DNA from: a virus
Taxonomy: Duplodnaviria > Caudoviricetes
Length of the DNA stretch: 58,438 nucleotides
IMG/VR virus record: IMGVR_UViG_3300037311_000064
Location: 1-58,438 of that record
Strand: one strand, 5' to 3'
Shown here: positions 15,358 to 47,439 of the stretch, piece after piece
Numbering within the stretch: position 1 is the stretch's first letter
Layout of the letters: each line of letters begins with the position of its first letter
The notes under the pieces: generated by a model
The model's database searches: none
The model's input: the letters and a program-made list of their open reading frames with translations, nothing else
What the model was told of the DNA's origin: nothing
Made by a program: the position numbers and the translations under genes

Positions 15358-15431
15358 ATTTTCTCCTTTTCTTTTATTTATTGCCGCACTAGGCGACAGT
15401 TATATCATATCACATGATAGCGCCTAGGCTT

Positions 15432-15470
15432 AAAAAAGTAAAGGGTTGAGTACCGTTAGGCGCTCAACCC
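15432..15470 (-). terminator. Intrinsic terminator after tail tube gene
   Basis: GGGTTGAG...CTCAACCC stem followed on the minus strand by TTTACTTTTTT. Confidence 0.75.
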
Positions 15471-31612: not shown

Positions 31613-32005
31613 TTAAGGTTTACAGATCGCGACTTGTACTGCTGCGTTTGAAGATCTAATTCTTAAAGATTTTTGATCATTCGAAGCTAAGCCAGTAAAC
31701 AACATTGCAACATGGTTAGGTGGAAGAGCTAGGCCATTAGCAATAGTGGGGGCAGAGCCAGGAACTGTGTCGTGATCTCCGATCCACAAAAACTGAGTTG
31801 AACCACTAGTATTGCAAACTCTTAGTGTTCCTCTCTCGGGAACATCCACTCCAGCAGCTAAACTTGAATCTGGTACGATCAAGTCTACAGCTATAATCTC
31901 GCCATTTGTAGAACGGCTTACTCCCGAAGCATCGTTGTGCTGATCGTTAGCAATCGAGCTTGGGTTTCTAGAAGCTTTTCTAAGATTAGTTTGTTGGTTA
32001 CTCAT
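31613..32005 (-). CDS. Hypothetical beta-sandwich virion protein
   Basis: LRVCNTSGSTQFLWIG...NGLALPP pattern. Confidence 0.55.
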   Translation of the reverse strand: MSNQQTNLRKASRNPSSIANDQHNDASGVSRSTNGEIIAVDLIVPDSSLAAGVDVPERGTLRVCNTSGSTQFLWIGDHDTVPGSAPTIANGLALPPNHVAMLFTGLASNDQKSLRIRSSNAAVQVAICKP

Positions 32006-32294
32006 CTTCTTCCTCGTTTAATTCGTCTTCTAGTGAAGACCTCTTTTTTGTGATAGTTCGATTTACCTTTTCAATTTCATTTCTAAAAAAGAAAAGTAAA
32101 TCCCTGTACCTCTTGAAATCAGACCTCATAAAATCTAGTTGAAGGTCTCTTCCTTGTCCTAGATTATCCTGAAACACGAATAAAACTGTAGGTTTATCAT
32201 ACTTACCTACAGAAACCTCGGTACGCAGGAACTTTAGGCCGTGCATTTCTAAAAATGGGCATAAAGCTAGGTTGTCTGTCTTGAACTCTTTCAT
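31998..32294 (-). CDS. Hypothetical protein (DUF5659-like)
   Basis: FKTDNLALCPFL..HG......V.....TVLFVF pattern. Confidence 0.5.
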   Translation of the reverse strand: MKEFKTDNLALCPFLEMHGLKFLRTEVSVGKYDKPTVLFVFQDNLGQGRDLQLDFMRSDFKRYRDLLFFFRNEIEKVNRTITKKRSSLEDELNEEEDE

Positions 32295-32340: not shown

Positions 32341-32424
32341 AAAAAAAGCCCCTGACAGAACGCCAGGGGCCAAGGAGGAGGAAGTGATCCATGGGAGGGG
32401 TGATCACAAGACCATTGCGGTCCT
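32341..32424 (-). ncRNA. Candidate small RNA with anti-Shine-Dalgarno tracts
   Basis: Own promoter; hairpin AGGACC/GGTCTT; hairpin GTGATC/GATCAC with loop ACCCCTCCCATG; single-stranded TTCCTCCTCCTT; terminator GCCCCTG/CAGGGGC + T7. Confidence 0.65.
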
Positions 32425-32430
32425 AGTATT

Positions 32431-32460
32431 AATATAACACTCTATTTAGGACTTTTTCAA
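32431..32460 (-). promoter_or_regulatory. sigma70-type promoter of the candidate sRNA
   Basis: TTGAAA (32460-32455), 18 bp, extended TG-T-TATATT (32439-32431). Confidence 0.55.
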
Positions 32461-32994
32461 TAGGCTACGCCAGGAGTCATTTTCGACAGTTCCATCCCAG
32501 TTGTTATTTTTGATCGCGTTTTCACTTCTAGACAGATATTGCAAATTCTCAATAACATGCAATCCGCATATTTCGGGATGATTTAGAGGGATAATGTGAT
32601 CGACCTCCATACCTTCTGGGCAATTCTTATAAAAATCAAAAATAGCCTTTTTATTTGCCCACTTTGGGGTTGCTAATTTTTTATAAGCTCTGTACCCAGC
32701 CGTATAAGCGGTTTGATACTTTCTAAATTTTAGATAGTTGTTTTCTATCCACTTTCTATGATTATAAAAGTACTGCTGTTTATTATTGTTGTAATGAAGC
32801 TTGTTTAAAGCTTTCTTTCTTTCTTTTACATCATCCCTTTGTCTGTAAATCTTATCTCTACCAGCGCGTCTATAATTTCTTGATCTTTCATTTTTACAAG
32901 ATTTACACTCAGCTCCAACACCTTGAGGTTTTCTTTTATCTTTAGCAAAATCACTTACGAGTTTTTCTATTTTACAAACAGAACAAATTTTCAT
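32446..32994 (-). CDS. HNH homing endonuclease
   Basis: N-terminal KICSVC...CKSC zinc finger; ATPKWAN, EVDHIIPL...CGLHVIENLQYL...N..K.N; lower GC than flanks. Confidence 0.9.
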   Translation of the reverse strand: MKICSVCKIEKLVSDFAKDKRKPQGVGAECKSCKNERSRNYRRAGRDKIYRQRDDVKERKKALNKLHYNNNKQQYFYNHRKWIENNYLKFRKYQTAYTAGYRAYKKLATPKWANKKAIFDFYKNCPEGMEVDHIIPLNHPEICGLHVIENLQYLSRSENAIKNNNWDGTVENDSWRSLLKKS

Positions 32995-33061: not shown

Positions 33062-34519
33062 TTATGCAGACCTTCCAATATTTTCAATAAGGAAGTGTTT
33101 GCGAGGAGTATAAACAATCGGAGTTCCGTACAAGAGCTGCATCCAGCGGTACGCAGTAGCGATAACCGCAAGGTCCATCTTCATCAACGGAGCCAATTGC
33201 TTGAAGCGAAGAGCTTCTGCATCCTTAGTCAACAGGTAAGCCTGAGAAAGACCAGGAAGCTTGTGGTTAAGGTCTCGGAGAGTAGCTGCGCCACCGACTG
33301 CTGCAGGAGCTACGAACGCGATAAACTCGTGTCCAACTGCAGAGTTACGAGGAGAGCGGTATACCGCGTAAGCGATAGCACCAGCAACACCAGCGATAGC
33401 AACATTCACTCGCTCGCCAGCAGCAACTGCCTGAGCAGCAGAAACTGGAGAAACAGGACCTTCGCCTGCCTCAGTGATAGCAGTTACACGGTAAGTGTAA
33501 GTGCCAGCATCAGCAGCAGTCATCTTTGAAAGAGCGTCAACAGCTACAGACAAAGTAGGAGCAGCAGGAGCAGCGATTCCGGCCAACGGAGCAGCAGGAG
33601 TGCGCTTAGGACGCTGGAACACGCTAGACATCAACTGGAATTCACCAGCAGCGGCTACGAAAGACTGGAGTACGAAACCAGCTTTACCAGCGGCAACACC
33701 CATTGGGTTGATACGCTCTTTAGGGAAGAACTGACGGCCAAGGTCAGAGTGAGCTTTAGTATCCATCAACATTACAGACGGAACACCAAAGTTTTCACCG
33801 ACAACTCGGGCAGCATCTTCAAGAAGATCAGAATCCATAACATCGCCACGGATGTCGCGGATAACATCTTCTTCAACACCGTAACCAGTGAAAGCCTTAG
33901 CTTTAGCAGAAGCATCAGTGTTACCTTTACGGATCTGCTTATCAAGACCTTCCCAAGCAGTGTCATCATCGAGGATGGCTGCGTCAGCACCGTCAAAAAC
34001 TCCAGAAGCAGACGCATAGTGTCCACGACCAGAAGTCAATGCACGCTCTACGATCTCAAGGATTCGCATAGTGCCGTTCTTGATTTCACGAGCGATAGCA
34101 TCGCCGTGAGCGTTTCGAACGAGCGTGTACACATGAGTCAACTCACGAGTAACGCCGATGAAACGCACTCTTTGGATCTGACGGCTGTAAGAAGCATCTT
34201 CAGATCGGGGAAGAGCGCCTTCCTTAATGAAGCCACGGCCTTGATCACCGTAAGCATCAGTTCGGTTGTACTCTTCGATAGTGTTGAAAGCTTGATCTTT
34301 ATCGATCATCGGCCACAACTTGAGATGTTTCATATCATAAGTGACAGACTTCAGAGAAGAATCCAAAGATTCTACTTGAAGCGCTCCACCACCAGTTCGG
34401 GTGTTGGGGGCACCGGCATAGGGAATGCCAGCTTCGAGGGCCTTGTTGAGTTCATCAACTTCGTTCGCAGTAGTTGCGCCGAATCCCTCTCCAAAATTTA
34501 CGAAATTATATTGGTTCAT
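33062..34519 (-). CDS. Major capsid protein (SPO1/Twort-like)
   Basis: ELNKALEAG...GGALQVESLD..LK..T, EEYN...YG..GRGFIKEG.LP, FKQLAPLMKMDLA, LLYGTP...PRK....NI; FN3-like insertion TYTYRVTA...GE; strong codon bias. Confidence 0.92.
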   Translation of the reverse strand: MNQYNFVNFGEGFGATTANEVDELNKALEAGIPYAGAPNTRTGGGALQVESLDSSLKSVTYDMKHLKLWPMIDKDQAFNTIEEYNRTDAYGDQGRGFIKEGALPRSEDASYSRQIQRVRFIGVTRELTHVYTLVRNAHGDAIAREIKNGTMRILEIVERALTSGRGHYASASGVFDGADAAILDDDTAWEGLDKQIRKGNTDASAKAKAFTGYGVEEDVIRDIRGDVMDSDLLEDAARVVGENFGVPSVMLMDTKAHSDLGRQFFPKERINPMGVAAGKAGFVLQSFVAAAGEFQLMSSVFQRPKRTPAAPLAGIAAPAAPTLSVAVDALSKMTAADAGTYTYRVTAITEAGEGPVSPVSAAQAVAAGERVNVAIAGVAGAIAYAVYRSPRNSAVGHEFIAFVAPAAVGGAATLRDLNHKLPGLSQAYLLTKDAEALRFKQLAPLMKMDLAVIATAYRWMQLLYGTPIVYTPRKHFLIENIGRSA

Positions 34520-34541: not shown

Positions 34542-35417
34542 TTAGTTTGAATGTCGCTTTTTAGCTTCTTCCATCACAAGCGCACGAACTGCTGGGTTAC
34601 TCAAATTTTTGGTAACTTCGAATTCAGCGATGTGCTGAGAGGTGATTCCTTTACCTGCTTTCTGAAGATCAAGCATTGTATCCAATACCTGAGATTTTGA
34701 AAGAGTAGTTTCGCTAGAACCACCTTTCTCAAGAGTCTCAAGGGTACTTACTGCTTGGCCGCTGTGAGCTGGCTGTGAGGAAAGTTTTTTAATTTCATCA
34801 GACATAGACTTGATCAAGCTGTCTTTCTCGTTCAAACGAGCGTCGAAAGCTTTTTTCAGGTCTTCGATTTGAGCACTGACAGCTTGAACAACTGACTTTG
34901 CAACATCAGTAGAAGCTTCTTTTTCAGCTTGCTCAGACTCTTCGCGCCAAGCTTTAATAAGCTCAAGCTCTTCAGAATCCAAAACTTGAGAAAGCTCTTC
35001 GATAGATTTTTTCATGCTCTTCTTGTGCTTCTCTTTTTCGTGCTCTTTTACTTCTTCTTTAGCTTCTTTATCAGCAAGTTTTTTCATTGCTTCTTTGTCA
35101 GCTTTTTGAAGATCAGCTTCTTTTTCTTCAGACTTTTTGGACTCTTCTTTTTCGTCCTCTTCGTCTTCTTCTTTTTCATCTTCAGACTTTTTAGCTTTAG
35201 CTTTTTCAGCTTGCTCTGCGCTCATCGGAGAACCAGACTTAATCTTGTCTTTTCCGCCGTTAGCGTCCTTGTCTGTATCTTTTGACTCTTCACTTTTAGC
35301 AACTTCTTCTTTTGCTTCTTCAGCAGGTTGCTCTTCAGTTCCAAGAGTCTCATCGATGATCGCATCGATTGACTTTAGAATTTCTTCTTCAGTCATTTTC
35401 TTTTTAGCTTCCGACAT
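34542..35417 (-). CDS. Capsid scaffolding protein
   Basis: E/K-rich coiled coil between protease and capsid; many hxK[S/A] motifs; ATG at 35417 behind AAGGAG. Confidence 0.7.
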   Translation of the reverse strand: MSEAKKKMTEEEILKSIDAIIDETLGTEEQPAEEAKEEVAKSEESKDTDKDANGGKDKIKSGSPMSAEQAEKAKAKKSEDEKEEDEEDEKEESKKSEEKEADLQKADKEAMKKLADKEAKEEVKEHEKEKHKKSMKKSIEELSQVLDSEELELIKAWREESEQAEKEASTDVAKSVVQAVSAQIEDLKKAFDARLNEKDSLIKSMSDEIKKLSSQPAHSGQAVSTLETLEKGGSSETTLSKSQVLDTMLDLQKAGKGITSQHIAEFEVTKNLSNPAVRALVMEEAKKRHSN

Positions 35418-36261
35418 TTTCGTCTCCTTCAATGCTCTTGAGCCTCGATGCGAGAACCTTCAAAAGATCAACTGGATCTTCGTCAGGATGCAACTCACAT
35501 AAGCGCTGCATGATTGATTTTAACACTCGTTTTTGACTTTTTTTGTCTTTTTTGGCAATATGCTTGAGCTTAGCGTCTAACGACTCCTTCGTCATCGCTT
35601 CGCCACCTGTTCGTTGAGCAGGAGCTTTCGTGCCACCTGCACCGGCTGCCAGCGCCTTTTCTACTGCTCCCTGGATCATGCTCTCAAGCTCTGACTTCTC
35701 AGCGGAGATGTATGCTGGCTCTGGAATATCTTCCAACTTACCAGATGCCAATGATTTTGCAAGGTCTACATAGGTGAATGGATTTACAGGGTCCAAAGTC
35801 AAAGCTACCTTGTCGATTCTTGCTTTTCGAATAACTTGGCGATTGACTGGATCTCTCTGCAAGATCTTTCCTTCAATGCTCATGTGTACGCGAGGTCCAG
35901 TGCTTTTCTTAAGTGATTTCAAGATGTTATAGAAAGCTTTAGCTCTTTCTTGATGTTTAAATAGGTAGCCTTTTACCAACAGAGCTTTTTGACCTTCGTG
36001 GGTAATAAAGTCAGCTTCTTCGATCTGACCAATTACATTCTCTGGTCCTTTCTGGTGATCGACATTAAACAACCCCCGACCAGCCTTTAACAAGGAGATA
36101 TCTAGACCATTTTGGTCAACTACTTCACCTTGAAGGTCCGCGTCTGGTGTAGATGCGATACCCTTGATCGACCACTCTTCATCACCATCAGCGTTTTTAG
36201 ATTTTTCAATCTCTACTGGGATATGAAATTGAAAAGATTTAATGATTTTATCTTCAGACAC
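35404..36261 (-). CDS. Prohead (maturation) protease
   Basis: IKGIASTPDADLQGEVV, FNVDHQ, IGQI, HMSIEGKI, VALTLDPVNPFT motifs of HK97/U35-type proteases. Confidence 0.88.
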   Translation of the reverse strand: MSEDKIIKSFQFHIPVEIEKSKNADGDEEWSIKGIASTPDADLQGEVVDQNGLDISLLKAGRGLFNVDHQKGPENVIGQIEEADFITHEGQKALLVKGYLFKHQERAKAFYNILKSLKKSTGPRVHMSIEGKILQRDPVNRQVIRKARIDKVALTLDPVNPFTYVDLAKSLASGKLEDIPEPAYISAEKSELESMIQGAVEKALAAGAGGTKAPAQRTGGEAMTKESLDAKLKHIAKKDKKSQKRVLKSIMQRLCELHPDEDPVDLLKVLASRLKSIEGDENVGS

Positions 36262-36306: not shown

Positions 36307-36564
36307 TCACAAGCCAGTGAGCTTTTTTACTTTCTCAAGCTCTGCAAGCTTTCGTTTTGCTTTAACTATGGCCTTTTTCTCTATGGAAGTTACCGCAGCT
36401 ATGGACATTCCTAGTAGCTTTGCTATCTCCGCTAGGGTGTGAGGGCGAGTGTTTAAACGCATGTAGGTAAAGAAGCAATTGTAGTGCTCGGGGGAGTTTA
36501 CCCACCAAGCATCAGGATCTTCCTGACATCTACAAGCATCTTTGTGTACGATCTTTGCACTCAT
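36307..36564 (-). CDS. Small sigma-region-4-like HTH protein
   Basis: PHTLAEIAKLLGMSIAAVTSIEKKAIVK matches sigma70 r4 HTH; Cys-rich N-terminus; first gene of late operon. Confidence 0.7.
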   Translation of the reverse strand: MSAKIVHKDACRCQEDPDAWWVNSPEHYNCFFTYMRLNTRPHTLAEIAKLLGMSIAAVTSIEKKAIVKAKRKLAELEKVKKLTGL

Positions 36565-37498: not shown

Positions 37499-37716
37499 GT
37501 GCTGCGGCGTGGAAAGCTGTAAACGGACGAGGCTTTGGCACGGTGAAAATCCGTGGTGGGTAGCGAGCGGTTTACTGGAGACACGCGATTAAGTGTAGGG
37601 GTGCTAGCGATTAACTTCGGAACCTTGCTTAACAAAAGGGGTCGTGGGGCTGTACACCGGCCATGACAGAAGCTTGTAAACCCTCAAGCACAATCAGAGT
37701 AGCGTCTGATCAGCAC
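37499..37716 (+). ncRNA. Candidate ~218-nt multi-helix structured RNA with tRNA-like ends
   Basis: GTGCTG/CAGCAC closing helix; GCGTG/CACGC; GTAAAC/GTTTAC; CACGG/CCGTG; TTAAG/CTTAA; GTCGTGG/CCATGAC; GCTTG/CAAGC; ATCAGA-GTAGCG-TCTGAT; GC-richer than flanks. Confidence 0.7.
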
Positions 37717-37731
37717 GCTTTTGGAGGAAAT

Positions 37732-38652
37732 GTGAGCGGCGGATTAAAAGCAAAGTTTCAAAAACTTAGACAAAAAAGCGCATCTCAAATGCGCGTTTGG
37801 TCAAACGGAACTATTTCATCTAAGAAAACAGCAATAGATAGTTTAAACTTTGTTCTTCATTATGGCGCACCTGCTGTTTGGGAAGGTATTAGGGCGTACA
37901 GACAAGAAGACGGCTCAACTAAGATTTGGCTTTTAGCTCCGCACATTCAACGACTTTTTAACTCAGCAAAAATCTTAAACATAAAAATTCCTTACACTGA
38001 GGCGGAGCTTATTAAGGCCTGTAATGAGCTTGTAGAATCTTGTGGTGGAGGTGATCTTTACCTTCGCCCAATTGCTTACACAACTCAAGATGCGGAATCG
38101 GTCAGAGCACAGACTTCTGCCATAAACATGGACATCTACGCGTTTCCTCTAAACGCATCCAATAAGGATGCAGGTATCACAGCTAGAATTTCAGCCACTC
38201 CTCGCGGCTATCCTCAGTATCAGATGCAAGCTAAAACTACTTCAAACTATGCGGTTCTTCACAACTGCAAGCATGAGTTCGAGGGTGTAGACGAGGTTCT
38301 TTTTTGTGATAACGACGGTTACATTGTGGAAGCTAGCGTCGCAAATATATTCATGGTCAAGAATAAAACAGTATTTACTCCACCTCAGACAGGCTCGATA
38401 CTTTCTGGCTTGACTCGCATGTATGTAGCAAGTAAGCTTTCAGAAGCTGGCTATCAAGTTATTGAACGCAGATTAACCAAAGCAGATATTTACACGGCAG
38501 ATGAACTTTTTATGACTGGAACTTATGTAGAAGTGGTTCCAATCATTAAGGTTGATGGAAGAGAAATTGGCGACGGTCAACCTGGCTCAGTAACTAGGGC
38601 AGCTTTATACAATCTAAGACTAGACACCCGAGGGGTTAAAAGAAATGGATAA
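37732..38652 (+). CDS. ilvE: Branched-chain amino acid aminotransferase (PLP fold IV)
   Basis: LHYG..VWEGIRAY, HIQRLFNSA, YLRP, AKTTSNY (catalytic Lys), EASVANIF, ILSGLTR, ADELFMTGT..EVVPI..VDGR. Start moved to GTG 37732 behind GGAGG. Confidence 0.85.
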   Translation: MSGGLKAKFQKLRQKSASQMRVWSNGTISSKKTAIDSLNFVLHYGAPAVWEGIRAYRQEDGSTKIWLLAPHIQRLFNSAKILNIKIPYTEAELIKACNELVESCGGGDLYLRPIAYTTQDAESVRAQTSAINMDIYAFPLNASNKDAGITARISATPRGYPQYQMQAKTTSNYAVLHNCKHEFEGVDEVLFCDNDGYIVEASVANIFMVKNKTVFTPPQTGSILSGLTRMYVASKLSEAGYQVIERRLTKADIYTADELFMTGTYVEVVPIIKVDGREIGDGQPGSVTRAALYNLRLDTRGVKRNG

Positions 38653-39464: not shown

Positions 39465-39668
39465 ATGAAAAAGAAGATTAGTAAAGCTGACTTTTTAAAA
39501 CTAACTATGGATGCTGCAGAGCGTTTGACTCGAAAAGAGCATAACCTTCGCGAAGAATCGCACTTAAATACGCAGCATTGGTATTTTAGAAACGGAGCTT
39601 ATGCTATGGCAGTTGAGATCTTAAAAGAGCAATACGAGGTTGTGGATGAAAGTCCGACTAATAGCTAA
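39465..39668 (+). CDS. Hypothetical protein
   Basis: 67 aa with GAGG RBS. Confidence 0.5.
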   Translation: MKKKISKADFLKLTMDAAERLTRKEHNLREESHLNTQHWYFRNGAYAMAVEILKEQYEVVDESPTNS

Positions 39669-40329
39669 AACTATAATCTGCGACGAAGATCTTAAAAAAG
39701 AACTTGCGTCAGTTGGATCAGAAAATTTGATCATGTATTGTGCTAGAGTTTCTAATCCTGCAAACCAAACTTCTGGTAATACTAAGCTTTTGGATTACTG
39801 CTTGAAGCATGGTCATGTCTCTATCTTTGAGATGGCGAATATGGTATTTGAGATTGAAACCTCACGAGCAATCGCTGCTCAGATCTTGCGACACCGTTCG
39901 TTCTCTTTTCAAGAATTTTCACAAAGGTACGCAGCAGCCCAGAGCATTGAAGTTTACGAAGCCCGATCACAAGATCCAAAAAATCGCCAAAACTCGAATG
40001 ATGATATGGAGCAGCACGATAAGGATTGGTTTCAATGGCTGCAAGAAGAACATAATAAGCAGTGCATGGAAAAGTATAAACAGGCCTTGGCAAGAGGGGT
40101 AGCTAAGGAGCAAGCAAGATTCCTTCTTCCTTTGTCTACCACTACGCGCCTGTACATGAACGGTTCTATTCGCAGTTGGATTCATTATCTCCAGCTACGC
40201 TGTGGAAACGGTACTCAAAAAGAGCATCAAGAAATTGCTTTGGCCATCAGAGATCTCTTCGTAAAAGAATTACCAATTATCGGGGAGGCTTTGGGATGGA
40301 CCAGCCCAGCAACAACGACCCAAGGGTAG
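39646..40329 (+). CDS. thyX: FAD-dependent thymidylate synthase
   Basis: YCARVSNP, HGHVSIFE, QILRHRSFSFQEFSQRY signature, EQARFLLP, GSIRSWIHY..LR....TQKEH. Confidence 0.95.
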   Translation: MKVRLIAKTIICDEDLKKELASVGSENLIMYCARVSNPANQTSGNTKLLDYCLKHGHVSIFEMANMVFEIETSRAIAAQILRHRSFSFQEFSQRYAAAQSIEVYEARSQDPKNRQNSNDDMEQHDKDWFQWLQEEHNKQCMEKYKQALARGVAKEQARFLLPLSTTTRLYMNGSIRSWIHYLQLRCGNGTQKEHQEIALAIRDLFVKELPIIGEALGWTSPATTTQG

Positions 40330-41103: not shown

Positions 41104-41955
41104 ATGCAAGGTTTATCAGTGGTGCCAAGTACAACTTCAATACATTACTATGTCACCGCGTTCTTGATGGGGTTAGGTTCTGAGAATACCCGAAAGGCAT
41201 ATCAGAAGGATCTTCAGGCTTTTATGGGGTTTGGACCTAACGAGGCCACGGATATCACCAGGCAGCATGTTTTAGAGTATCGAGACTCGCTAGTGGCTTC
41301 TGGACTGGCTCCGGCTTCTATTAATCGAAAGATGTCGGCTATCAGGAGCTTTACAGACTTCGTGCGAGGACAAGGCGTACTGAACACCGACCCATTTGCA
41401 GGCGTAAAGCTTCCCAAGACCTCTGTTAAAGATCCTACTCAGGCGTTTACCGATGAAGAAGTCAAAAAGATGCTCAAGCTTTCCGAGCGCGATGTTCGGG
41501 ATCATTTGATACTTAGCCTCTTATTCTTTGCTGGCCTTCGTCGATCTGAAGCCGCTCAACTTTTAGATTCAGATCTGTCTTTGATGGATGGCGTGATGGT
41601 CATCAGGGTTTTTGGTAAAGGCGGAAAGTTCAGGATGATCCCTTGTCATCCCAAGCTTCAACAAGCTTTGGTGAACTATCAAACAGCCGCGAGACCTTTT
41701 GGCTCTTTGCTTGGCGTTAAAGACCACACCATCTTCAATACCGTAAAAAAGTACGCAAAGCTTGCTGGGGTTACTCGCAGGGTGTCTCCACACTCATGCC
41801 GTGCCACAGCAATCTCTCAGTTACTGGAAAATGGTGAGTCTCCGCGAAATGTCGCTGACTTTGCCGGTCACGCAAGTATCACTACGACTTTGGGATCTTA
41901 CGATAAGAAACGAGATGGAATTAAAAACTCTTCAGCACTAAAGCTGAAATTTTAA
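41104..41955 (+). CDS. Tyrosine recombinase (XerC/D-like)
   Basis: SAM-like N-domain (SENTRKAYQKDL, LAPASINRKMSAIRSF), catalytic GLRRSE, GKGGK, PHSCR, AGHAS..TT...Y. Confidence 0.92.
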   Translation: MQGLSVVPSTTSIHYYVTAFLMGLGSENTRKAYQKDLQAFMGFGPNEATDITRQHVLEYRDSLVASGLAPASINRKMSAIRSFTDFVRGQGVLNTDPFAGVKLPKTSVKDPTQAFTDEEVKKMLKLSERDVRDHLILSLLFFAGLRRSEAAQLLDSDLSLMDGVMVIRVFGKGGKFRMIPCHPKLQQALVNYQTAARPFGSLLGVKDHTIFNTVKKYAKLAGVTRRVSPHSCRATAISQLLENGESPRNVADFAGHASITTTLGSYDKKRDGIKNSSALKLKF

Positions 41956-43910: not shown

Positions 43911-44126
43911 ATGAAAAGAATAATTAGGCTAGTATATTTGTCAATAATTATAGGTTTGATACTTTTGCTGTCTCATCTTGAGGCATGGAATCGTGGGTAC
44001 GATACTGGTTACAAATCAGCCATGAGTGATGTTGTGTTAGGTATTGAGACACCTGAAAACTTTTTTATTAAATTGTTTGACATCAGGGTACCTAAGCGGT
44101 TAGAACAGAAGGAGGAGGCAAGATGA
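43911..44126 (+). CDS. Small membrane protein
   Basis: N-terminal TM helix followed by GYDTGY. Confidence 0.55.
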   Translation: MKRIIRLVYLSIIIGLILLLSHLEAWNRGYDTGYKSAMSDVVLGIETPENFFIKLFDIRVPKRLEQKEEAR

Positions 44127-44419: not shown

Positions 44420-44914
44420 ATGGTCACATCAACACAAAACAATAAGCTTTTAGTTAAGCTTGCTCAAGATCGAAGCTATCGTTTCTTGAAAAACGGAACA
44501 GTTCAAAAGAAAGGCTCAGACGGCAAGTTCCGCACTGTAGGCAGTGATCGACATGGTTACACTGTTGTACAGTATCGTGGAAAGAAGCTGGTAGTAGCTC
44601 GTGCTATCGCTGTTCGAGAGGCACTGAATGAAGGTGCAACCGGCACTTTGATTTCTAAGCTTTTGACGAACACGGTCATCTTGCACAAGAATCGCAAGAG
44701 CGCCGATAACCGAGTAGTTAACTTGCGCCCTATCCGAGCAGGAAAGTATCCTAAGACTCAAAAGCGCGGATTGACTGTTGCTCAGATCGAGAAGATGGTT
44801 GCTTTGTTCTGCGAGGGTTTCAGCGTAGCTAAGATTGCTCGTCGCTTTCGTCGTAAAGTCAGCCGATCTTACATCAGTCGAATCATCAAGCGCGAACTTG
44901 GCGTGGAGGCATAA
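44420..44914 (+). CDS. Basic HNH-like protein with C-terminal HTH
   Basis: VILHKNRKSADNRVVNL (HNH-like) and GFSVAKIARRF..KVSRSYISRII (HTH). Confidence 0.65.
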   Translation: MVTSTQNNKLLVKLAQDRSYRFLKNGTVQKKGSDGKFRTVGSDRHGYTVVQYRGKKLVVARAIAVREALNEGATGTLISKLLTNTVILHKNRKSADNRVVNLRPIRAGKYPKTQKRGLTVAQIEKMVALFCEGFSVAKIARRFRRKVSRSYISRIIKRELGVEA

Positions 44915-47212: not shown

Positions 47213-47439
47213 TAACAGAGACCTTCTACCTATCGGACGAAAGTAACCTAGAGCGAGCTTGCGAGATAACAGGCTTAGCTCCCGATGAGATAGAAGATGT
47301 GGTTGGTCGTTTTACAAAGACTAGTCACCGATATGGCTCATTACGAGGCGAAGTTGTAATTTTTATTGACGGTAAGGTAGTCATCAGGCATCATTTCAAC
47401 AAGAAGAAGCTATGGGAGGGTTTTTATGAAGACTGTTAA
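47209..47439 (+). CDS. Hypothetical protein
   Basis: 76 aa, ATGA coupling. Confidence 0.5.
   Translation: MITETFYLSDESNLERACEITGLAPDEIEDVVGRFTKTSHRYGSLRGEVVIFIDGKVVIRHHFNKKKLWEGFYEDC

Follow-up and report, generated by a model that had tools for sequence, protein, structure and literature searches.

Is a short unit behind the capsid gene of an uncultured tailed phage a gene for a regulatory RNA, as it looks to be, and what could such an RNA do? We addressed this for the IMG/VR virus record IMGVR_UViG_3300037311_000064, a sequence of 58,438 bases (GC content near 42%, estimated to be ~50% complete) that was analyzed over its whole length and is referred to below as the window. The small RNA (sRNA) unit follows the major capsid protein (MCP) gene, and all of its features read 5′ to 3′ on the minus strand, between an open reading frame (ORF) for a 182-aa endonuclease and an ORF for a 98-aa protein (Table 1). 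The original prediction, made from the letters alone, had claimed a promoter, two hairpins, an unpaired tract, and a GC-rich terminator with a T7 run, and all of these were present on the minus strand where it had placed them. Comparison across nine genomes indicates that the unit is very probably a real and conserved gene for a structured non-coding RNA, bounded by a promoter and a terminator of its own. With moderate confidence, we further read its product as a stand-alone RNA of ~85 nt that would pair in trans with purine-rich ribosome-binding sites (RBSs) by means of anti-Shine-Dalgarno (anti-SD) sequences.

Nine phage genomes keep a covarying RNA unit

In the window itself, the minimum free energy and centroid folds both consist of exactly three hairpins (−32.2 kcal/mol, z = −2.68), with 2 of 200 shuffled sequences as stable. 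The promoter scored 10 of 12, plus the TG, in a consensus scan, and an exact copy of its extended −10 element, TGTTATATT, occurs only once in the window. Scanning a 2-kb region returned five promoter-like sites where 4.0 were expected by chance and two terminator-like sites where 1.9 were expected; the 12-mer of the linker, allowing up to one mismatch, occurred twice against an expectation of 0.5. Because the promoter and terminator counts equal chance, the single sequence is only suggestive, and it is the comparative data that provide evidence beyond chance, since nine genomes keep the unit with covarying pairs.

Relatives were found through the MCP. The search returned 19 viral loci, six of them close (L002–L007, 86%–97% identity), the next at 44%, and the rest at 31%–36%, as well as contigs of metagenome-assembled genomes (MAGs) with identities of 91% (L027), 86% (L028), and 87% (L029). 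The sRNA unit stands after the MCP gene in all of L002–L007 and in L027 and L028, which together with the window gives nine distinct members. L029 was left out, as its contig stops within a large endonuclease ORF that has been inserted behind the MCP gene, which makes it uninformative on the RNA.

In the nine-sequence alignment, scored over 24 base pairs, 93.5% of cells pair, and nine pairs have changes on both sides. Covariation among related phages had been put forward as a check on the original prediction, and it was found, with none of 500 column shuffles reaching the covariation score of the 24 pairs. As a control, the 3′ partners were slid by one to three columns, upon which pairing fell to 31%–51%. 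RNAalifold independently predicted the same three hairpins in a 22-pair version. For these 22 core pairs, pairing holds in 196 of 198 cells and compensatory double changes occur at 9 pairs, while the two extra hairpin-2 pairs of the larger set hold in only three of the nine sequences (an 8-bp stem in three relatives). Double changes affect three of the six pairs of hairpin 1, four pairs of hairpin 2, and two pairs of the terminator, the stem of which pairs in 100% of cells across the nine members. Two loops are invariant (9/9 each), namely GCAA in hairpin 1 and GUUCU in the terminator.

The alignment also distinguishes between the strands. It contains 28 G-U cells, and an RNA made from the opposite strand would pair in only 170 of 198 cells; the folded molecule is therefore the minus-strand transcript. 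Single-nucleotide indels in the linker (an extra C in L003 and an extra U in L007) mean that there is no reading frame on the minus strand, and no ORF is conserved on either strand of the unit among the nine genomes. These data bear on an alternative that the original prediction had itself named as a possible refutation, in which the purine tracts would serve a plus-strand mini-ORF (GGAGG, ATG at 32391, MGGVITRPLRS). An SD-like sequence, AAGGAGGAGGAA, does lie 10 nt before the plus-strand ATG in the window, but three of the nine genomes have no start codon within 18 nt, one has a two-codon ORF, and the rest have differing frames and peptides. The G-U pairs moreover mark the minus strand as the folded one, and we reject the mini-ORF as having next to no probability.

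A covariance model built from the nine members (R1) found exactly one copy in each of them and none at 13 distant MCP loci. On whole phage records, it found a single copy in five of five, including a complete genome of 117,954 bases with terminal repeats, and none of 30 relatives of the MAG that bins L027 (G001) carries the RNA. The distant MCP relatives (L008–L020, 31%–44% identity) have only a plain terminator at the post-capsid spot. Degenerate-pattern scans of viral, metagenome, and genome collections gave 74 loci, and then 24 new ones from a second pattern, with no new member among them; the patterns yielded six and eight stretches from viral contigs, 37 from metagenome contigs, and 33 from genome contigs, and a promoter-plus-hairpin-1 pattern yielded 29 more viral stretches. 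Applied to the pattern loci, R1 gave, besides records already known, one weak match, L092 (20.4 bits, E = 0.19). An exact 24-mer search produced no match. An exact stretch of 19 nt shared with the linker and terminator foot by two viral contigs unrelated to the family, L022 (6251–6269) and L024/L032 (~1500), was judged to be chance because it lies within a coding region of the opposite strand, in a glutamate-rich stretch. As far as these searches reach, the sRNA family occurs only in a single clade of uncultured phages, whose capsid protein is SPO1-like.

Table 1 Positions of the sRNA unit, its flanking elements, and named genes in the window
Feature	Position	Strand	Details
−35 hexamer TTGAAA	32460–32455	minus	Within the last codons of the inserted endonuclease ORF
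Promoter spacer		minus	18 nt in the window
Extended −10 TGTTATATT	32439–32431	minus	TG at 32439–32438, TATATT at 32436–32431
Hairpin 1, AGGACC-GCAAU-GGUCUU	32424–32408	minus	6-bp stem, loop GCAAN
Hairpin 2, GUGAUC-12-nt loop-GAUCAC	32407–32384	minus	6-bp stem, C-rich loop ACCCCUCCCAUG
Unpaired linker UUCCUCCUCCUU	32383–32372	minus	12 nt, main putative anti-SD seed
Intrinsic terminator	32371–32341	minus	10-bp GC-rich stem (32371–32347), loop GUUCU, T7/U7 run (32347–32341)
Conserved non-coding block	32340–32295	minus	45 nt, between the sRNA terminator and the SD-less ATG of the 98-aa ORF (31998–32294)
HNH/endonuclease VII-like ORF	32446–32994	minus	Free-standing, 182 aa; phrog_1035, E = 1.5e-19; weak HNH_3
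MCP-gene terminator	33046–33017	minus	−20.6 kcal/mol, z = −6.4; upstream of the sRNA unit
MCP	33062–34519	minus	
Head maturation protease	35404–36261	minus	
Class IV aminotransferase	37663–38652	plus	E = 2e-44
ThyX	39640–40329	plus	E = 2e-47
Tyrosine recombinase	41104–41955	plus	E = 3e-20

Promoter, flanking terminators, and inserted endonucleases

From its spacing to the −10 element, the 5′ end of the RNA is predicted at ~32424–32427. The −35 hexamer reads TTGAA(A/T) in all nine genomes and stands 16–18 nt from the −10, with a spacer that is unconserved in sequence and variable in length. The −10 element is identical in eight of the nine; L004 has TGGTATTCT (TATTCT), together with a −35 of TTGAAT. 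Conserved hexamers around a spacer that varies in both sequence and length mark a selected promoter. It is of the host sigma-70 type and resembles the best promoters of the early region, from which an early onset of expression would be expected; read-through out of the MCP gene may raise expression at late times.

In relatives without the endonuclease, the MCP stop codon is followed by a strong terminator, by TTGAAA within ~15 nt, and then by the spacer and the −10; in L002 and L005, the MCP terminator comes directly before the sRNA promoter. With conserved hexamers, a terminator on either flank, and no conserved ORF, the proposal of a stand-alone non-coding unit running from promoter to terminator on the minus strand appears well founded.

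In the window, the gap between the MCP terminator and the sRNA promoter is filled by the endonuclease ORF, which is not part of the RNA. Homologous endonuclease genes occupy this same spot in three genomes, the window, L007 (5563–6189, 208 aa), and L029 (960–1973, at least 338 aa), and are missing from L002, L003, L005, and L006 and from contigs of three other sequencing runs (X3–X5). These last contigs carry the RNA; their likeness to the window breaks at 32441, within the promoter spacer, and TTGAAA is still found at the right distance. A −35 hexamer stands at the right distance in every genome with a readable promoter region, with or without the endonuclease (L029 ends before it). Judged from these junctions, the promoter is retained through repeated endonuclease insertions, and its survival at each insertion of a homing endonuclease is, indirectly, one more sign that the phage has a use for the RNA. 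In L007, a second promoter-like copy (TTGACT-17-TATTCT after TGT) lies at the head of the endonuclease gene.

The insertions might also be read as the mark of a promoter-terminator cassette without any RNA function, that is, an early-type promoter at an insertion hot spot in the manner of the PeSLs. According to PMC2839356, the PeSL cassettes of T4-type phages combine strong sigma-70-like promoters with terminator stem-loops and mediate shuffling, and the sRNA unit resembles them in having a sigma-70-type promoter and an efficient terminator at a hot spot of this kind. Endonuclease genes inserted exactly here in three genomes, and a break in likeness that falls inside the promoter spacer, would agree with such a cassette. 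However, the PeSLs of that account are multi-copy, whereas our unit is single-copy, down to its −10 sequence, and encloses a covarying structured RNA. Its interior of ~60 nt holds two compensated hairpins and an invariant tract, which a mere by-product would not preserve, and we consider a cassette devoid of RNA function to be very improbable.

Two C/U-rich tracts predicted to be exposed

The linker keeps UUCCUCC in all nine genomes, the full CCUCCUCC in eight, and CCUCCUU in seven. Its variants are the loss of one UCC unit in L004, the added C of L003, the added U of L007, and a U-to-G change in L027. The loop of hairpin 2 varies in length and sequence, with CCUCC in seven of nine members and a run of at least four C in eight. 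The predicted probability of being unpaired is ~0.7–1.0 for this loop and ~0.9–1.0 for the linker, so that the claim of displayed anti-SD sequences holds for a tract that is both exposed in the predicted fold and kept in nine genomes.

A further claim, that the RNA resembles the 3′ tail of 16S rRNA, stands only in part. The likeness is literal in the window, which reads GGAUCAC-UUCCU-CCUCCUU, close to the 16S tail, and it extends to the family for CCUCCUU. Beyond CCUCCUU, GAUCAC is found in six of nine members and TGGAUCAC in two, and mimicry is unsupported there because GAUCAC is the covarying 3′ arm of hairpin 2, replaced by CAGUUAC in two members and by CGACUAC in one. The RNA could nonetheless be imagined as a mimic of the tail: it might act as a decoy that draws off some nuclease, toxin, or modifying enzyme able to recognize the tail, or, as a free anti-SD, it might compete with ribosomes globally. 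CCUCCUU in seven of nine linkers would suit this, as would the failure to find a specific conserved target. But conservation stops at the generic anti-SD core, no candidate partner is known, and the (UCC)n-like tract puts up with the loss of a UCC (L004), an added C (L003), and a U-to-G change (L027); such tolerance of change is more in keeping with a pairing seed than with a precise mimic. We hold 16S mimicry to be quite unlikely.

A terminator hairpin with a U7 tail is also a usual Hfq-binding module, and the RNA presents three single-stranded motifs (GCAA, the tract, and GUUCU) that are invariant in all nine members. Taken with the want of a conserved mRNA target, this would accord with a protein sponge, in which the tract and loops titrate a host RNA-binding protein (S1, Hfq, or a cold-shock protein) and no mRNA is paired. 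The precise complementarity of both C-rich tracts to SD cores, however, offers the simpler reading, which leaves the sponge with only a small chance of being right.

The downstream block and the late operon

In every relative whose sequence extends that far, the 45-nt block that follows the sRNA terminator has a strongly conserved sequence but no covariation, and it has no second copy in the window. It could hold a phage-specific promoter or a translation signal; as a recurring late-promoter motif, it showed no recurrence above chance in the window. A 5-codon mini-ORF (ATG...TAA/TAG) lies within the block, its frame and stop kept in relatives. After another strong terminator of the late region, at ~15400–15440 on the minus strand, the sequence TGATATGATATAACTGT resembles TGATATAACCTGT just before the 98-aa gene. 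The two were rejected as a shared motif, as there is an indel between them and no enrichment in the window.

The position of the unit raises its main rival explanation, a cis-acting leader or attenuator of the lambda pR′-tR′ or put type for the downstream head-completion and tail genes. In lambda, pR′-tR′ is a sigma-70-type promoter with a terminator, and its short terminated product is the “6S” RNA. On the leader hypothesis, the hairpins and the pyrimidine tract would form a factor-binding site, and the short RNA would be a by-product. The late genes do run on for ~32 kb immediately downstream and in the same orientation, no other clear sigma-70 promoter was recognized in the stretch from the terminator to the 98-aa ORF, and the two invariant loops, GCAA and GUUCU, would suit contacts with a protein or with the polymerase. 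Against this, the linker is still unpaired in the consensus fold of eight read-through sequences that include the downstream leader, and that fold contains no conserved pairing that competes with the terminator, and hence no antiterminator. The separately conserved 45-nt block could hold the next gene’s own signals; that gene, for the 98-aa protein, is SD-less and offers no GGAGG for the tract to sequester; and the terminator is a strong one that compensatory changes have maintained. We therefore rate a leader as unlikely, though with a chance large enough to be taken seriously.

Predicted pairing with ribosome-binding sites

In the trans-acting reading that we favor, RNA polymerase with a host factor of the sigma-70 type would start at the extended −10, just after the capsid-gene terminator, and would stop at the strong intrinsic terminator. 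The RNA would fold into a 5′ hairpin with a GCAA loop, a hairpin with a C-rich loop (CCCCUCC), the 12-nt single strand UUCCUCCUCCUU, and the terminator hairpin with its U tail. Both exposed C/U-rich tracts would then pair in trans with the SD regions of mRNAs (GGAGG, AAGGAGGAGG), and this pairing would compete with the 30S subunit and lower translation. That the unit is transcribed, that its RNA acts in trans and affects translation, and which host or phage mRNAs it would target are inferences from the sequence features described above, as would be the host shut-off suggested in the original prediction.

Potential sites are common, in that an SD 4-mer core lies within 25 nt at 58 of the 88 predicted starts of the window. 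Searched window-wide, the best linker site outside its own locus is the RBS of the early gene at 44123, AAGGAGGAGG (about −21 to −21.7 kcal/mol), and the best loop site outside its own locus is the RBS of the HNH-AP2 gene at 47426, AUGGGAGGG (−21.1 kcal/mol). The HNH-AP2 RBS (47401–47430, plus strand) is a perfect 9-nt complement of the window’s hairpin-2 loop, and the loop of L003 is identical. Early genes have the stronger SDs, as had been assumed: with a generic 16S tail as comparator, early starts of the window pair better than late ones (medians of −7.8 and −5.9 kcal/mol, p = 0.0096). In the complete relative, GGAGG is only nominally commoner at early starts (8/50 vs 2/38 at late starts, Fisher p = 0.18).

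Several results weigh against this reading. Target scans of five genomes had no top site in common, so that prediction of targets, another check envisaged at the outset, returned no conserved phage target. The AAGGAGGAGG match at the 90-aa early gene (44123) decays in four orthologues, which have AAAGAGGAGG, ACAGGAGGCGG, CAGGAGC, and CAGGAGT. Pairing of the linker did not differ between early and late starts (p = 0.63 in the window, p = 0.20 in the complete relative), and the suggestion that the RNA preferentially silences the phage’s own early genes was not upheld; no difference arises despite the stronger early SDs because the repeated register of the sRNA removes it. In MAG G001, the linker complement had 14 matches compared with 9 for a control, with no enrichment, and the only exact chromosomal complement falls inside a coding region. 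An anti-SD mechanism does not account for the invariance of the GCAA and GUUCU loops. The location directly upstream of a long late operon, in the same orientation, also fits a cis-acting leader, and among the sequencing runs on record with this DNA, none is RNA.

Comparison with known RNAs

For the window and five loci, Rfam at gathering score returned nothing but a tRNA in L007, and the comparison with known families that was to check the prediction thus yielded no model for the sRNA. In E-value mode over 1 kb, sub-threshold matches were obtained to anti-hemB (RF02837, 25.0 bits vs a gathering score of 49.5), CyaR (RF00112, 24.9 vs 47), MmgR/suhB (RF00519, 22.5 vs 41), and the Betaproteobacteria toxic sRNA (RF02278, 19.0 vs 50). 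Each of the four alignments consists of a CCUCC-type tract or loop and then a terminator, as in the phage sRNA, and what these matches share, a CCUCC tract beside a terminator, is therefore a likeness of kind and not membership. The sRNA is a new RNA family of a known kind of regulator, with nine related uncultured phage genomes as members so far.

Cuckoo/CcsR-type sRNAs of Alphaproteobacteria are described in PMC4615179 as two to four adjacent hairpins, each loop with CCUCCUCCC; they are thought to pair with RBSs, and their motif CCUCCUCC(C) is anti-SD-like. The phage sRNA likewise has the CCUCCUCC motif, adjacent hairpins, and a terminator. It differs in carrying CCUCCUCC in the unpaired linker, in having a single C-rich loop (CCCCUCC), and in its hairpin-1 loop of GCAAN. 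Because the motif sits in the linker and not in hairpin loops, the RNA falls outside the definition of the cuckoo RNAs, and no homology to them was detected. Whereas cuckoo RNAs are chromosomal and often multi-copy, the sRNA described here is phage-borne and single-copy.

The nearest architecture is found elsewhere. LhrC of Listeria, RsaE/RoxS, and RNAIII, all from Firmicutes, are RNAs of ~100 nt that block RBSs and have C-rich motifs in two places, a hairpin loop and the single-stranded part ahead of the terminator. In LhrC and RsaE/RoxS, the order of C-rich loop, C-rich single strand, and terminator is that of the phage sRNA. The Rfam models of LhrC, RsaE/RoxS, and RNAIII gave no match at E-values up to 10. 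All of these RNAs are host-encoded, and the motif of the phage sRNA is the longer one, (UCC)3. A functional analogy may also be drawn with RegB of T4, a phage endoribonuclease that cuts early mRNAs at GGAG Shine-Dalgarno sequences. The likeness is one of function only, as RegB is a protein nuclease, whereas the phage sRNA would mask such sites instead and shows no early-gene bias. The UCCC motif and LhrC are mentioned in PMC12282133 and PMC4615179.

Among RNAs encoded by phages, c4 of P1/P7 is, according to the review PMC12197685, a temperate-phage RNA whose loops pair around an RBS and stop the translation of one mRNA (ant). Compared with c4 as presented there, the sRNA of this study has a generic anti-SD seed and no conserved specific target, and it comes from a large phage with an SPO1-like capsid. 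Transcriptome papers on Herelleviridae list non-coding RNAs, none of them of the anti-SD type in the sections available (PMC9241854, PMC12282133). A search of the full-text literature found no phage-encoded anti-SD sRNA; supplementary tables lay outside it, among them Table S1 of PMC12197685, whose 38 phage sRNAs of unknown function could hold one.

Genome setting and host

The structural genes of the window lie on the minus strand, over bases 1–36,261, and the early-type genes on the plus strand, over 36,900–58,438. Besides the head maturation protease and the MCP, the minus strand carries a scaffold-like acidic ORF and tail genes, and the plus-strand early block includes a class IV aminotransferase, ThyX, a tyrosine recombinase, an AAA ATPase, and the HNH-AP2 endonuclease. 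The aminotransferase has nearest genome homologues of at most 38% identity, scattered across many phyla. The late block is headed by an 85-aa ORF (36307–36564, minus strand) that matches Sigma70_r4 at 26.0 bits, compared with a Pfam cut-off of 24.1, and, weakly, a PHROG sigma-factor family; going by these matches, its product may be a small late-transcription factor.

The MCPs of SPO1-like Bacillus phages are at most ~34% identical to that of the window, none of the 342 matching records reaches 60%, and INPHARED contained no record matching the window DNA. Taxon labels of the three MAGs with a close MCP are in conflict (Proteobacteria, Saccharibacteria, and Chitinophaga), and the 16S fragment of MAG G001 covers positions 9–873 only, that is, without the 3′ tail. 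One tRNA-Met (CAT) gene lies a few kb from the capsid gene in two relatives, at 44592–44669 in G008 and at 109468–109544 in G009 (1313–1386 in L007); ARAGORN found no tRNA genes in the window.

Implications

Most described phage sRNAs come from enterobacterial prophages, according to the review PMC12197685, and large, probably virulent, uncultured phages account for few of the known regulatory RNAs. One broader idea is that unrelated phage lineages have converged on an abundant post-capsid RNA, a “free anti-Shine-Dalgarno” that re-weights initiation globally or decoys a factor directed at the 16S tail. We regard such convergence as speculative and rather improbable. Were it true, strong GGAGG sites would be masked, late messages with weak SDs or none, such as that of the next gene here, would be spared, and the present family would be one instance of a wider phenomenon. 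For the phages studied here, a conserved RNA that shows the ribosome’s mRNA-docking tract suggests that RNA-based control acts on translation initiation during infection, and if it acts broadly, the RNA might represent a compact and portable translation repressor.

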